Positions 2,746-39,120 of a DNA stretch of 64,000 bases are shown here, one piece after another. The stretch's first letter is position 1, and each line of letters opens with the position of its first letter. The DNA is taken from NCBI GenBank assembly GCA_902801125.1, contig CADCGT010000002.1:7157-71156 (forward strand), read 5' to 3'. The position numbers and the translations under genes were made by a program. Below the pieces are notes generated by a model. That model was not told the DNA's origin, did no database searches, and was given only the letters and a program-made list of their open reading frames with translations. This DNA comes from an uncultured Pseudomonadota bacterium (lineage in GTDB: Bacteria > Pseudomonadota > Alphaproteobacteria > Rs-D84).

Positions 2746-2751
2746 AATCCC

Positions 2752-2780
2752 TTGACCGGGGTATGCGTTTTTGATAAAAT
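2752..2780 (+). promoter_or_regulatory. sigma70-like promoter TTGACC-N17-TAAAAT at the head of the conserved leader
   Basis: CCCTTGAC box and a -10 at 2775-2780. The same arrangement recurs at 35157-35186. Confidence 0.4.
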
Positions 2781-3021
2781 AGCAAATGAATCGGATGGGA
2801 ATCCGTTTCGGGGCTGTAGCAGGCCTATGTGTATCCGGTGCAAAGCATCGTAATCCGTTGCGATTTCCGTGTTTTTGCACCGCAATATTACCCCAATAGT
2901 GGTTGGGGTGCCGGTGGTGTATATATAAATATCATCGGGATCGTTGATACACATGATTTGCTAACACCCCGACCGTCAATTTCCATTGACGGTTGTTTTA
3001 TACCAAAAAAGAGGGAATTCA
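2781..3021 (+). promoter_or_regulatory. Conserved structured 5' leader (copy 1) ending in a hairpin (2972-2993) plus U-rich tract just before the RBS
   Basis: Blocks shared with 35187-35437: GGGAATCCGTTTCGGGGCTGTAGCAGGCC, ACCCC..GGGGTGCCGGTGGT, ATCGGGATC, GATTTGCTAACACCCCGACCGTCA. Terminal hairpin ACCGTCAatttccaTTGACGGT then TTGTTTTAT. Confidence 0.45.
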
Positions 3022-3504
3022 ATGAGCAAAAAATTACTTTTCGCCATAATCGCGACAATTTGCACCACCACCGCATTTGCAGATACCAAAACCGTCACCA
3101 CCAAGGATTATGTGGATACCGCGGACGCATTAAAGCAAGATAAAATAGTCGGACATACACAATACCGGCCCGATTCTGTTATAACAGATACCACAAATGA
3201 TGGCGTGCTGGGTAAACGTTTAACTTTGGGTAGTGATCACTGGCTTACCCCCGAGTTTTGGGCAGCTTATTTGGAAGCTGGGTCACTTACGCAAAATCCA
3301 AATGAAGATGTGCAAGAGATGGTAGAAGATGGAGAATTTACTTATGATGATTTGAGAAAATCGTTAGTCCAGGCAAATGTTTTGGAAATCGCATTATCAA
3401 GACTTACTAGCACAATAAATTTGAAACGTATGACCTGTGCGCGGTATGTTGAAAATGCCGCCCAAACGGCCGAAAATTGCCTGCTGTGGAACGTGGTGCA
3501 ATAA
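3022..3504 (+). CDS. Secreted protein, 'KTVTT-YVD / CLLW' family paralog 1
   Basis: Signal peptide MSKKLLFAIIATICTTTAFA, motif DTKTVTTKDYVDTADALKQDK, C-terminal ENCLLWNVVQ. Paralogous to 35438-35986 and 36094-37566. RBS AAGAGGGAA. Confidence 0.7.
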   Translation: MSKKLLFAIIATICTTTAFADTKTVTTKDYVDTADALKQDKIVGHTQYRPDSVITDTTNDGVLGKRLTLGSDHWLTPEFWAAYLEAGSLTQNPNEDVQEMVEDGEFTYDDLRKSLVQANVLEIALSRLTSTINLKRMTCARYVENAAQTAENCLLWNVVQ

Positions 3505-3572
3505 AACGCCGACGAATGTTTTATCATAATACCAAAAACCACCGCTTTTGCGATGGTTTTTATTGTGTGTAT

Positions 3573-3600
3573 TGACAAAAATAAATTTATGTATTATAAT
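3573..3600 (+). promoter_or_regulatory. Near-consensus sigma70 promoter TTGACA-N16-TATAAT
   Basis: TTGACA at 3573-3578 and TATAAT at 3595-3600, directly upstream of the HNH-motif gene. Confidence 0.5.
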
Positions 3601-3622
3601 TTTGTCAAACAAAGGGATTATA

Positions 3623-4669
3623 ATGCGTAAAATGTGTATTTTTTGCGGGCATCGGCCGGTGGACAAGAATAAAGAACATGTTATTCCGCAATGGTTAATA
3701 CGTGAAACCGGTCGGACAAAATCCCCAATTATTGATACACCGGATAAAAAAATTCCGTTCTTGGCGTTTACTATGCCGGCGTGTACGGCGTGCAATGAAC
3801 GGTATTCCAAAATGGAATCCGACGCGCAATCGGTAATGCAGAAAATTTTGGGCGGTATGTCAATAACCGCACCGGAAATCAACACATTGCTTGATTGGTT
3901 TGACAAGGTTCGCGTGGGCCTTTGGCTGGCGAACGCGTATTTGAATCCGCAAAAGTACGATTTTCAACCCAAAATTGCCATAGACACACGTGTCGGCAAA
4001 CTGGACCGCGCATTGGTCGTGGAAAAGATAGATATGCCGGCATCCGACAAGGGAATTTTAATTGAAGGCATTTATTCGCCGATATTCATATATTCTCCGT
4101 CGGTTTTTCAAATGTTGATAAATAATTATTCTTTTACCAGTGCATCGTGTGCAAACCTGGTATCAAACAGGTTGGGTTTCCCGGTTATAAGCAATGTCAC
4201 ATTGGTGTCGGGTGGTCGTACGCATGGTAATTTGTGCCCCGGCCGTGAAAAAGTGACACACCCCGTTATCAAAGATTTTGCACCGTCGGATAACCAGATT
4301 ATTTTATATCAACCGATTTTTTCTCAATTTCAAAAATCGCCACTGTGCCAAACAAAATATGTTCAAAAATACTCTTTGGACCATAATGCAGGTTTGGGCG
4401 GAATATTCTATCAACGCGGTGCAAATTCACCGGTTGTGTATATGTCGGGCGATGATAAAATCCGCCTGAATCCGCGACCATATCCCGATGATGACGCAGA
4501 ATTGGATAAAATATATAAACGTATGTATAACCTGCAAATTGCGGTAAATAATATGCCCATACGTTTCGATACGGGTGATACCGTGGCGGATGCGCAATAC
4601 GCGTTTTTGCGGAAATGTAAATCAGATTTAGTTGCAAATTATGTTAAAGATAATTTTAACGGCCGGTAA
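3623..4669 (+). CDS. HNH-motif nuclease-like protein with a ~300-aa C-terminal extension of unknown function
   Basis: N-terminus CIFCGHRPVDKNKEHVIPQWL (CxxC...EH.IP, HNH-like) and a second CTACN pair. The rest is unrecognised. Single gene with its own promoter. Confidence 0.55.
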   Translation: MRKMCIFCGHRPVDKNKEHVIPQWLIRETGRTKSPIIDTPDKKIPFLAFTMPACTACNERYSKMESDAQSVMQKILGGMSITAPEINTLLDWFDKVRVGLWLANAYLNPQKYDFQPKIAIDTRVGKLDRALVVEKIDMPASDKGILIEGIYSPIFIYSPSVFQMLINNYSFTSASCANLVSNRLGFPVISNVTLVSGGRTHGNLCPGREKVTHPVIKDFAPSDNQIILYQPIFSQFQKSPLCQTKYVQKYSLDHNAGLGGIFYQRGANSPVVYMSGDDKIRLNPRPYPDDDAELDKIYKRMYNLQIAVNNMPIRFDTGDTVADAQYAFLRKCKSDLVANYVKDNFNGR

Positions 4670-35150: not shown

Positions 35151-35156
35151 TTTCCC

Positions 35157-35186
35157 TTGACGCCGAATCGTGTTTTTTGTTAGAAT
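35157..35186 (+). promoter_or_regulatory. sigma70-like promoter TTGACG-N18-TAGAAT (leader copy 2)
   Basis: Aligned with the 2752-2780 copy, including the CCCTTGAC box. Confidence 0.4.
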
Positions 35187-35437
35187 GTGTTTGAACCAAT
35201 GGGAAACCATTCTCGGTTCGGGCTGTCGTAGGCCCACATCTTGGACGGCACGCAATTTTTTTGGGTGTGCCAAATACCCCGCCTGTCGGGGTGCCGATGG
35301 TTATAATGCGCTGTCAAAAGGCCTATCGGAATCAAATTCCAAGATGTGATTTACGAACACCCCGACCGTCATGGATTCCACGACGGTTTATTTATACACA
35401 AAACAATCCCGCACGGGGGGAAGGAGAAAAACAAGCA
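35187..35437 (+). promoter_or_regulatory. Conserved structured 5' leader (copy 2) ending in a hairpin (35365-35387) plus U-rich tract before the RBS
   Basis: Same conserved blocks as 2781-3021. Terminal hairpin ACCGTCatggattccacGACGGT followed by TTTATTTAT. Confidence 0.45.
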
Positions 35438-35986
35438 ATGACAAATCACAAAATTCTATTATTTGGCGCGGTTCTGTCCGCTTTGACAATTGATACATTT
35501 GCGGTGACAAAAACCGTCACGACCCAGGGTTATGTTGATAACGCGGTCGCCACGAAACAGAATAAATTATCGGGTTCATCCGGCTATGCCGTCACATACG
35601 GATCAAGCGCGGGTACAACGGATGAACGGCAAATCGTAACATCACTTGGGTCGGATACGACGGCGACGACATTGCCGACAACGGGTGCGGTTGTGTCGGG
35701 CCTGAACGCGAAACAAAATACATTAAACGGTGCGGCAAACACGGTTATTACATATACCGGCACGGCGGGCGGCACCGGTTCCAAGGGCGTGTACCAGGCA
35801 TCGGGTTCTTACAGTTCCCAGACAAATAGTTTGGCCGAGGCCGGACATGTCAACACGGCGGTTGCGAACGCGTTTAATGAACATTTAACATGCAATACAT
35901 ACGCAACACCCGGGGATACGACCAGTGATTGTTTGCTCTGGAATGTGAACACATTGTCGGGAACATATATGCCGCAAAACCAGTAA
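35438..35986 (+). CDS. Secreted protein, 'KTVTT-YVD / CLLW' family paralog 2
   Basis: Signal peptide MTNHKILLFGAVLSALTIDTFA; AVTKTVTTQGYVDNAVATKQNK; ...SDCLLWNVNTL. RBS GGGGGAAGGAGAAAA. Confidence 0.7.
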   Translation: MTNHKILLFGAVLSALTIDTFAVTKTVTTQGYVDNAVATKQNKLSGSSGYAVTYGSSAGTTDERQIVTSLGSDTTATTLPTTGAVVSGLNAKQNTLNGAANTVITYTGTAGGTGSKGVYQASGSYSSQTNSLAEAGHVNTAVANAFNEHLTCNTYATPGDTTSDCLLWNVNTLSGTYMPQNQ

Positions 35987-36093: not shown

Positions 36094-37566
36094 ATGAAAC
36101 TATCAAAATACGGTTTTAATGTTGCATTGGTTTTATTATTGGTACCGGGAATCGCCCGTGCAGAAAATCCCGACCTTATGACGCTTATCGGCGCCAGCGG
36201 CGAGGCCGACACATATGCGGCACGTGACAACAATGGGGAGGATACGAACGACAACGCATCAACATACGGATTAAGTTCATCCGACCATAATTCATTTGCG
36301 GTTGATTACGGCAACAGCGGTATCGTACGTGGTCATGGCCGTTGCAGCACGCGTGCGGGCGATTCTGGGACGTGGAATAATGACACATACAATGTAATAT
36401 CCGGTAATTTTGTAGATAGCTTAACCGATGAAACGGGCCAAAGCGGTGCACAATATTGCTATTGCCAATTGGACAGTTATACGGCCTCTGGTGGTTCTGC
36501 CCAGGCTTTGTCTGGCCCGTGGGTGTTCCGCAGTGACGACGAGGACGCGGACACTTGCGCGGACGACTGTGCGCTCGACTGTGCGGATGCCCTGATGTTC
36601 GGCGGCGCGGACGGTCTCGCGTTCCGGGCTGCAATGTTTAATGCCTATGCGCCGGCGGGCGGGGCCAGTGGTGGCAGTGCGGTGACGACACAAACCTATG
36701 TTGATAATAAATTGGCGACAAAACAGGCGCGGATTACCACCACCGGCACAAATAAACTTATGACATACGGTGCATCCACGGGCGCGACCCCGGGTTCGCG
36801 TGATATTGTGACCGCGCTTGGCACATCCACCACCGCAACCACTGTGCCAACGGTTGGCCCAATCGTCACGGCCGTAAATAATAAACAAGACGCGGTCAAC
36901 GGCACAGCGGACTATGTTATGACCGGCACCGGCACGGCCGGCACACTCGGTGAAAAACCGGTCTACAGTGCCAGTGCACAATTGTCGACCGCCCTGGTAA
37001 CCGCCCAGACGATAAATACGGCGGCAATGGACGCGGCCAACAGTGAAATGATGTGTCATTCCTATGTTGCCAACGCATCTCAAACCCCGGAGAATTGCCT
37101 GCTGTGGGAAATAAAACAAAGTATTTCTAAACCGTTGCAATCGTATTGGCAAAATCCGTCGACACCATACACAAGTTCTTGTTATCGTAAGGCATATGGT
37201 AATTATACAGAAGGCGGTATAGCACGTAATGATCAGAATGGTAATTGTAGCAGTGCAACTGTATCGTATCTTGGGGCATTGAACAACAAAAGTGGTAAAT
37301 GGGGCACTGTTTTCCCATATGGTGATATAAGCGGTGTAAGTAAATGTGTTAATTATATTGCCAATCCTGGTATTGCGACAGATGAGCAAATTAATTCGCA
37401 GTCTACGGGCGGGGTTTGTTGGTGCAAGATGCAAAATCCGATAGTTTCAAAATGGGCGATCGGCATGAGTTATGGAAATCTTACCAATTGTAATAAGGTA
37501 TGTGCAGGGACGTGCGCCGCACTTCAACCATCGTATAGAGAAGTTATGTACAGCACAATAGAATAA
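36094..37566 (+). CDS. Secreted protein, 'KTVTT-YVD / CLLW' family paralog 3 with extra N- and C-terminal Cys-rich domains
   Basis: Signal peptide MKLSKYGFNVALVLLLVPGIARA. Internal VTTQTYVDNKLATKQARI...PENCLLWEIKQ domain alignable to paralogs 1 and 2. Confidence 0.7.
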   Translation: MKLSKYGFNVALVLLLVPGIARAENPDLMTLIGASGEADTYAARDNNGEDTNDNASTYGLSSSDHNSFAVDYGNSGIVRGHGRCSTRAGDSGTWNNDTYNVISGNFVDSLTDETGQSGAQYCYCQLDSYTASGGSAQALSGPWVFRSDDEDADTCADDCALDCADALMFGGADGLAFRAAMFNAYAPAGGASGGSAVTTQTYVDNKLATKQARITTTGTNKLMTYGASTGATPGSRDIVTALGTSTTATTVPTVGPIVTAVNNKQDAVNGTADYVMTGTGTAGTLGEKPVYSASAQLSTALVTAQTINTAAMDAANSEMMCHSYVANASQTPENCLLWEIKQSISKPLQSYWQNPSTPYTSSCYRKAYGNYTEGGIARNDQNGNCSSATVSYLGALNNKSGKWGTVFPYGDISGVSKCVNYIANPGIATDEQINSQSTGGVCWCKMQNPIVSKWAIGMSYGNLTNCNKVCAGTCAALQPSYREVMYSTIE

Positions 37567-37651
37567 TGTTTGTTATTGTACAATATAACCCTGCAAATGC
37601 GGGGTGTTTTTATGAAATAATTGCCGTGAATACTGCGCCGTGGTGACAATT

Positions 37652-39046: not shown

Positions 39047-39120
39047 TGGTGCGAGTGAAGGGAATCGAACCCTCGTCTAAAGCTTGGGAAGCTTTCGTTC
39101 TACCATTGTACTACACTCGC
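39047..39120 (-). tRNA. tRNA-Gly (anticodon CCC)
   Basis: Minus-strand cloverleaf GCGAGTG-TA-GTAC-AATGGTA-GAAC-G-AAAGC-TTCCCAA-GCTTT-AGAC-GAGGG-TTCGATT-CCCTT-CACTCGC-A-CCA. Closely resembles E. coli glyU. One A.A mismatch in the D-stem. Confidence 0.85.

Follow-up and report, generated by a model that had tools for sequence, protein, structure and literature searches.

A riboswitch-like leader RNA, probably cis-regulatory, in front of secreted- and surface-protein genes of uncultured Rs-D84 Alphaproteobacteria

Transcription-terminating riboswitches built on multi-helix junctions, such as the four-way junction of SAM-I/S-box, are promoter-proximal leaders on the sense strand, in which covarying helices surround a junction with invariant unpaired nucleotides, the 3' strand of helix P1 abuts an intrinsic terminator just before the Shine-Dalgarno sequence (SD), one shared strand has two mutually exclusive partners, and multiple copies per genome stand before functionally related genes. 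A leader RNA that appears to resemble them in all these respects occurs twice, as copy A (2749-3021) and copy B (35153-35437), in a 64,000-nucleotide (nt) stretch of DNA from an uncultured bacterium of the alphaproteobacterial order Rs-D84 (contig CADCGT010000002.1; hereafter the window). It differs from the SAM-I type in that no Rfam model, SAM-I included, matches it even at E up to 10, in that its genes encode secreted proteins rather than biosynthesis or transport functions, in that the alternative helix and the terminator share no more than 1-6 nt, and in being known from a single uncultured clade. We regard this RNA as probably a new riboswitch-like cis-regulatory leader that combines its own promoter, a junction fold, a terminator-like hairpin and a candidate strand exchange with a regulon of secreted and surface proteins.

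The c-di-GMP riboswitches (GEMM-I and c-di-GMP-II) act on genes for pili, flagella, adhesins and further secreted or surface proteins, and a single genome often has several such genes. The leader's non-metabolic, secreted and surface regulon resembles theirs, but no sequence or structure match to them was found with Rfam, and the two-helix GEMM fold differs from the leader's four-way junction and additional 5' hairpin (P0). By analogy, which is not evidence, a regulon made up only of secreted and surface proteins would be more in keeping with a signalling molecule than with an intermediate of metabolism. T-box leaders are likewise about 200 nt long, occur in many copies per genome and carry a terminator with competing helices, and the present leader even has a short variable triplet (NNN of P1) inside an invariant segment; its triplet, however, is base-paired and covaries with its partner, it has no Stem I, specifier loop, T-box sequence or Rfam T-box match, and it does not precede aminoacyl-tRNA synthetase or amino-acid genes. 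HK022 put, Bacillus EAR and LoaP-dependent leaders are structured RNAs at the start of surface or exopolymer operons that affect terminator read-through, with an effector that may be something other than a small molecule. They have smaller or different folds and act on distant terminators, whereas the terminator here is adjacent; the leader has no Rfam match to them, and no dedicated factor gene was seen beside the leaders. Finally, the 5' regions of Mycoplasma vsp/vlp and Campylobacter fetus sap genes also combine a conserved non-coding segment and a signal peptide with a wholly different mature domain, but conservation of the present leader is explained by an RNA structure with compensatory changes, and its copies in the same genome have diverged rather than been homogenised. 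The family is new; the kind, riboswitch-like structured leaders, is known.

The two regions in the window are homologous: nhmmer pairs 2748-3010 with 35153-35403 in both directions (E 1e-10 to 2e-10). Their nucleotide identity is 60-61%, compared with 48% (maximum 52%) for shuffled sequence, while the 250 nt upstream of the two copies are 47% identical, which is the shuffle level, and similarity ends at the SD. No third copy was found in the 64 kb, either with nhmmer or with a covariance model run with filters off. A preliminary description of the window, made from the sequence alone, had reported that the regions align block by block, and re-alignment recovered all five blocks: the promoter at 2752-2780 and 35157-35186 (i), GGGAA(T/A)CC...GGGCTGT.G.AGGCC (ii), GGGGTGCCG(G/A)TGGT, or GGGGUGCCGRUGGU as RNA (iii), ATCGG(G/A)ATC, or AUCGGRAUC (iv), and a 3' block (v) whose identity we count as 23/26 instead of 22/26. 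The order of parts is the same in each copy, namely a sigma-70 promoter with extended -10, a structured RNA, a terminator hairpin with U tract, an SD and a gene with a signal peptide.

Folded separately, copies A and B reach the same architecture, which from 5' to 3' consists of the P0 hairpin, the closing helix P1 and then P2, a four-way junction with P3, P4 and P5, and a terminator-like hairpin. Folding z-scores are -6.2 for A and -4.1 for B, with -6.2 and -4.2 for two divergent relatives (L087 and L084). The sequence of P2 is wholly different in A and B, yet complementary in both. Covariance model R1, on which the core coordinates rest, spans the core RNA without P0 (MFE, minimum free energy).

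2807-2996, + strand: core RNA of copy A (R1 match, 196 bits, E 2e-63; MFE -93 kcal/mol)
2810-2823 and 2957-2970, + strand: P1 of copy A, 5' and 3' strands
2826-2835 and 2946-2955, + strand: P2 of copy A, 5' and 3' strands
2836-2882, + strand: P3 of copy A
2890-2909, + strand: P4 of copy A
2911-2938, + strand: P5 of copy A
2939-2945, + strand: conserved junction segment GAUCGUU of copy A
35216-35390, + strand: core RNA of copy B, a variant with short P3 (R1 match, 106.5 bits, E 2e-33)
35294-35329, + strand: P5 of copy B

Support for this fold comes from an alignment of 45 distinct leaders (A2) that was built with MAFFT, blind to structure, with the consensus structure taken from separate MFE folds of the 45 sequences. 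Each pair of P1 and P2 recurs in 28-39 of the 45 individual folds. On A2, 89.2% of alignment cells form standard pairs, a value that falls to 38-46% when the 3' partner is slid by 1-3 columns. Changes on both sides were found in 46 of 75 pairs, against a shuffle mean of 34.9 and 21-34 with slid partners, and in 435 cells against 143 in shuffles; none of 500 shuffles reached either 46 pairs or 435 cells. Up to four Watson-Crick types per pair occur in the three variable pairs of P1 and in all of P2, P3, P5 and P0. In a model-based alignment (A5), the 12 column pairs with the highest mutual information after average product correction were all predicted base pairs, each with four Watson-Crick types, and the same mutual-information analysis gave no pseudoknot signal beyond the nested helices. 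P4 varies even within the main set, with CCCCAA facing UUGGGG in six copies.

Covariation and mutual information together establish that the structure of the leader RNA is real. The preliminary description had argued for selection on an RNA structure, and the compensatory variation among the 45 homologues does fall in the same helices that each copy folds alone. What lies between promoter and gene is a conserved, structured 5' untranslated domain with covariation, as in riboswitches generally. P4 had also been considered as a DNA palindrome or operator, a candidate ruled out by G-U wobble compensation.

The terminal loop of P5 (2919-2930 in A, 35301-35320 in B, columns ~150-176 of alignment A3) has a conserved UAUAU...AAA(G) motif and occurs either in a short form or with an inserted mini-hairpin, for example UAUACAACAGG...CC.AAAA. 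This motif and the GNRA loop of P0 may form a tertiary loop-receptor contact.

Protein searches traced the downstream genes to metagenome-assembled genomes (MAGs) of uncultured Alphaproteobacteria. A pattern scan of species-representative genomes yielded 11 sites in six rumen or gut MAGs (Candidatus Enterousia sp. and other Alphaproteobacteria), with 2-3 per MAG, and a scan of metagenome contigs gave 58 loci, about 45 of which were confirmed by nhmmer and the covariance model. Loci reached through proteins bring the family to about 57 instances, a single genome having 2-3 or more. On this sequence sampling the leader RNA is known from one uncultured clade, the gut and rumen Alphaproteobacteria of order Rs-D84, in which Enterousia has been placed (PMC12306168). 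Members of this order have genomes below about 1 Mb, lack the tricarboxylic acid cycle, respiration and standard transporters, and may rely on partner organisms (PMC12306168).

Searches against the 4227 models of Rfam 15 identified no known class, in line with the preliminary description, which had recognised no riboswitch motif. At the gathering threshold, the whole window contains a single hit, a tRNA; at E up to 10, both copies gave only unrelated noise matches; and at E up to 5, no family recurred at the leader among 12 diverse members. In the literature, we found no earlier description of a riboswitch in Enterousia or Rs-D84. The tRNA gene lies at 39050-39120 on the minus strand (69.5 bits), with anticodon CCC from the alignment, so that it would be a glycine tRNA.

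Each leader is bounded by signals for its own transcription. In 42 of 46 copies, the RNA is directly preceded by a sigma-70 promoter, usually with an extended -10, and in 41 of these 42 the distance from the end of the -10 to P1 is 25-29 nt; the transcript would therefore begin at P0, and for copy A we infer a start near 2786-2788. P0 itself shows double changes in 6 of 9 pairs, and 87% of its cells pair in A2. At the other end, a G+C-rich hairpin followed directly by a U tract, as in intrinsic terminators, is kept just before the SD in aligned copies. In copy A it was called by a terminator scan at 2970-2995, followed by TTTTATACCA; the simple scan misses the hairpin of copy B, which has an internal mismatch in its stem and was found by folding. 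The scan likewise called the hairpin of L082, a relative discussed below.

2752-2780, + strand: promoter of copy A (-35 TTGACC, N17 spacer, extended -10 TGaTAAAAT)
2788-2809, + strand: P0 of copy A, the 5'-terminal hairpin GAAUCGGAU-GGGA-AUCCGUUUC with a GNRA-type loop (fold and covariation)
2971-2999, + strand: intrinsic-terminator-like hairpin of copy A, GACCGUCAAU-UUCC-AUUGACGGUU, with U tract UUGUUUU (scan and fold)
3010-3017, + strand: SD of copy A, AGAGGGAA
35157-35186, + strand: promoter of copy B (TTGACG, N18 spacer, TGtTAGAAT)
35193-35219, + strand: P0 of copy B, GAACC...GGUUC closing AAUGG-GAAA-CCAUU (fold)
35364-35395, + strand: terminator-like hairpin of copy B, GACCGUC-A-UGG-AUU-CCA-C-GACGGU, with U tract UUUAUUUAU (fold)
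35420-35426, + strand: SD of copy B, GAAGGAG

The layout that had been likened to a riboswitch, an attenuator or a cis-encoded small RNA (sRNA) thus recurs across the family, and several explanations have to be weighed against it. One is a stand-alone, trans-acting sRNA, whose C-rich strands might act on G-rich ribosome-binding sites while the gene behind is expressed by incidental read-through. Promoter, 5' hairpin, terminator and U tract do form a complete transcription unit, although an RNA with its own promoter and terminator does not discriminate between an sRNA and a riboswitch leader; the terminated RNA would be very stable, and the C-runs are complementary to SDs with a run of G. These C-runs are base-paired in the stable fold, however, several diverged copies are present in every genome, and the position is not independent of genes: the orientation is fixed, and a secreted-protein gene on the same strand follows within 14-125 nt, with no room for its own promoter, which is the signature of control in cis. 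We consider a trans-acting sRNA quite unlikely. GGGG-run SD regions occur in 21 of 38 leader-linked genes and in about 12 of 57 other genes of the window, a suggestive, noisy comparison that we do not count as evidence. In several leader-linked genes, a further CCC...GGGG hairpin directly precedes the SD (for example at 35405-35420 of the window, with equivalents in L017 and L075), and pairing of leader C-runs with G-run SDs could add a translational layer.

Another explanation, which we also find unlikely, is a constitutive 5' untranslated region that stabilises the mRNA of abundant surface proteins in the manner of ompA or S-layer leaders, without switching, the hairpin and U tract being structural or a weak terminator. 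The near-consensus promoters with extended -10, the hairpin at the extreme 5' end and the exclusive association with secreted and surface proteins would all suit such a role, but a 190-nt four-way junction with invariant junction nucleotides is far more elaborate than protecting a 5' end would require, conservation extends to the terminator-like hairpin and U tract directly ahead of the SD, and two mutually exclusive helices kept by co-variation (see below) point to a conformational switch.

A leader-peptide attenuator, in which translation of a short leader open reading frame (ORF) selects between hairpins, might be read into the four complementary segments that precede the terminator (e1-e4, described next), since these recall the 1:2, 2:3 and 3:4 logic of trp-type leaders. 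The longest ATG ORFs of the 45 leaders nevertheless vary in start column (4 to 250), in length (1-59 amino acids, aa) and in sequence. With no leader ORF conserved in position, length or sequence, this variant of the attenuator idea is highly improbable.

The favoured reading, a cis-acting riboswitch-like leader, draws further on a candidate strand exchange. RNAalifold prefers a helix GUCGGGGUG : CACCCCGAC (helix Y), which joins two segments that we call e3 and e4. Segment e3 (GUCGGGGUG) comprises the 3' strand of P4 plus the junction UG, and e4 (CACCCCGAC) forms the last part of the 3' strand of P1 and reaches into the base of the terminator. A sequence identical to e4, termed e2 (CCCCGAC), makes up the 5' strand of P4, and e1 (UUCGGGGCUGU, in the P1 5' strand) resembles e3.

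2901-2910, + strand: e3 of copy A, GGUUGGGGUG, the shared strand, pairing with e2 (CCCCAAU, 2891-2897) in P4 or with e4 in helix Y
2965-2974, + strand: e4 of copy A, CACCCCGACC, pairing with e1 (UUCGGGGCUGU, 2807-2817) or with e3
35217-35226, 35277-35283, 35285-35293 and 35358-35366, + strand: e1, e2, e3 (GUCGGGGUG) and e4 (CACCCCGAC) of copy B (duplex energies)

In every copy e3 is complementary to both e2 and e4, and helix Y pairs in 99.5% of cells. Both e3 and e4 are invariant in the main alignment, which is by itself uninformative. The informative copies are divergent ones that were reached by adjacency or via proteins and so lie outside the DNA-pattern selection:

L087, 2835-2989: e2 CCUCCAAC, e3 GUUGGAGG, e4 CCUCCAAC
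L084, 9827-9972: e2 AUCCAACC, e3 GGUUGGAUG, e4 CAUCCAACC
L057, 11605-11807: e2 CCCUGAU, e3 GUCGGGGAG, e4 CUCCCCGGC (GAG with CUC)

In these three, e3 is perfectly matched to both e2 and e4, while e1 is uncompensated, with U-U mismatches left. Among the duplexes, e3:e4 ranks first throughout (-16 to -23 kcal/mol), with e2:e3 at -12 to -15 kcal/mol and e1:e4 at -7.6 to -16.5 kcal/mol. P4 and Y cannot coexist, and Y also excludes P1, so that their joint conservation is evidence for two alternative conformations, as is typical of regulatory RNA switches; the sequences thus suggest two mutually exclusive helices beside the terminator. As a candidate expression platform, the leader offers a terminator and a strand, e3, common to P4 and Y, with both helices kept by co-variation, although Y reaches only 1-6 nt into the terminator. 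A further combination, helix X (e1 with e2), was unsupported: 81% of cells pair, in weak duplexes.

On this basis, each region would produce a leader transcript of about 215-225 nt from its own strong promoter, acting in cis on the gene behind it. By default, the RNA would adopt the junction fold and the terminator form, and most transcripts would end before the gene. Modulation would come from the strand exchange, in which e3 leaves e2 in P4 and pairs with e4. An effector, either a small molecule (which would make the leader a riboswitch) or a protein, would favour termination by stabilising the junction fold; without it, helix Y would open the junction and weaken the terminator base, and the balance between junction and Y would set the share of transcripts that reach the gene. 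The regulon, on this proposal, would comprise the secreted and surface proteins of the genome-reduced gut Alphaproteobacteria of Rs-D84. In a bolder version, the RNA would represent a riboswitch class of its own that senses a small molecule or second messenger directly and, through the three-strand P4/Y exchange, sets the level of all variable surface and secreted proteins, perhaps with genes linked to type IV secretion among them; we hold this to be possible but rather doubtful.

Several observations weigh against this interpretation. What the leader does is deduced throughout from sequence. The search patterns partly fixed e4, so its invariance is in part ascertainment, and three or four divergent sequences supply the covariation of Y. 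Relative to the junction fold, the Y conformer is computed to lie about 9 kcal/mol higher in energy before the 3' strand of the terminator has been transcribed, and about 14 kcal/mol higher thereafter. Helix Y shares 1-3 nt with the terminator stem in the majority of copies; in about a third of them, copy A among these (GUGGUUGGGGUG with CACCCCGACCGU), the shared stretch is 5-6 nt. With so small an overlap, the coupling to termination is weak on paper. Beyond Y, a search for a conserved, universal antiterminator complementary to either terminator strand found none; it gave partial matches in about a third of copies, namely the P5 5' strand, an extended Y or, where NNN is CGA, the 5' strand of P1. 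Leader-less homologues of the leader-linked proteins also exist (L002, L005, L007, L080 and L085), and the regulated set consists of secreted proteins of no assigned function, which give no hint of a metabolite.

The genes behind the two copies, and a third gene that follows gene B, are:

3022-3504 (ATG to stop), + strand: gene A, 160 aa, with a signal peptide, the motif TKTVTTKDYVD and a mature part that is hypervariable among close relatives
35438-35986 (ATG to stop), + strand: gene B, 182 aa, a secreted paralogue of gene A
36094-37566: gene C, after gene B, with a related domain

Genes A and B had been described as paralogues for secreted proteins, and BLASTP bears this out (E 1e-12, 29% identity); their products have the motif TKTVTT(K/Q)(D/G)YVD in common and both have N termini like signal peptides. 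Across the family, an ORF with a signal peptide (a lipoprotein signal in L087) lies 14-125 nt downstream in about 44 of 54 copies. These ORFs span several unrelated families, among them a TSKxYVD...KQxKI family, proteins with weak matches to Listeria-Bacteroides repeats, Cys-rich proteins and others without a Pfam family; one leader-linked gene encodes a family-2 glycosyltransferase. Functional searches of the leader-linked proteins returned nothing from Pfam, or sub-threshold Flg_new and Ephrin_rec_like, and an AlphaFold2 model from 38 sequences was poor (predicted local distance difference test, pLDDT, 61), with no Foldseek match against the PDB.

The preliminary description had held that coding sequences (CDS) diverge much more than the leader. 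For A versus B the difference is mild (61% versus 53% nucleotide identity), but between orthologous loci it is strong, with leaders 90-99% and CDS 45-67% identical: copy B and L001 agree in 90% of leader nucleotides, 67% of CDS nucleotides and 63% of the protein, and copy A and L011 in 99%, 45% and 25%. Constraint is tighter on the leader than on the genes. Against a syntenic Enterousia MAG, identity is 96.5% from the leader through the signal peptide to about codon 32 of gene A. Beyond this point the mature domain has been swapped for another (450 versus 1024 bp); the last ~77 bp of the gene are kept, and identity of ~90% resumes. Gene C shows the same replacement pattern against L015. These identities and a synteny breakpoint just after the signal peptide indicate a constant 5' module with an exposed part that is exchanged or fast-evolving, and the mature part of gene A and gene C look like hypervariable surface-protein cassettes. 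In window coordinates, the segments replaced relative to L011/L015 are 3120-3569 (mature part of gene A) and ~36150-37600 (most of gene C), with flanks 89-97% identical.

Such a pattern might instead reflect conservation at the DNA level, either an expression-site or recombination module for surface-protein cassettes that gene conversion keeps uniform, or a recent segmental duplication. The 96.5% identity through ~32 codons beside a replaced mature part, and the 99% leader identity beside 25% protein identity for A and L011, are what one would expect from it. The two copies within this genome are only ~61% identical, however, and so are not homogenised; their similarity ends at the SD and does not extend equally into coding sequence; the differences are overwhelmingly compensatory in helices, including G-U wobbles that are meaningless in DNA; and cassette replacement is compatible with an RNA function while leaving the fold unexplained. 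As the sole explanation, DNA-level conservation is already largely refuted by covariation, and we judge it very improbable. A repeat or mobile element (a miniature inverted-repeat transposable element or a recent duplication) was rejected in view of the 61% identity of A and B, the upstream flank at shuffle level, the compensatory nature of the differences, and copies that always face a gene.

Other neighbourhoods add context on the proteins. In L082 (10671-15421; also L083), homologues of virB8, CagX/virB9 and TrbI/virB10 come immediately after a leader-linked gene A homologue (35% identity), which suggests that the protein family is linked to type IV secretion. The leader-linked gene and the virB genes are separated by a terminator-like hairpin (L082 10500-10521), so we claim adjacency only and not co-transcription. 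In L002 (4762-7671; also L003), 342-aa and 110-aa proteins and a 333-aa reverse transcriptase (RVT_1) adjoin a leader-less homologue of gene B, a layout reminiscent, by analogy, of a diversity-generating retroelement with target, Avd-like accessory protein and reverse transcriptase. Different hairpins, also strong (GUCCCCUUCUU...AAGAAGGGGAG, and one of GC type followed by a U tract), occur within the 300 nt (L002 3701-4000) that precede the leader-less homologue P0044, and might be another leader type or the terminator of the upstream gene. TcpQ-like and secretin genes at L085 14347-16977, a few kb from a leader-less gene A homologue, are a further sign of investment in envelope machinery by these small genomes. 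Within the window, gene A and rpsD flank an ORF of 349-373 aa (3548-4669, + strand) that has a CxxC...H motif and a sub-threshold match to HNH_5 (E 0.05).

For the biology of Rs-D84, spending several copies of a 190-nt RNA on the promoters of secreted- and surface-protein genes implies that regulating the cell surface lies at the heart of how these bacteria live. Should the RNA bind a ligand, the identity of this ligand would reveal a signal sensed from the host or a partner, and the family would be a large, well-supported addition to the orphan riboswitches, with an unusual regulon. Even with a protein effector, it would provide a handle on the surface-protein regulon in MAGs, and a clean model of a strand-exchange switch backed by natural co-variation of three strands.

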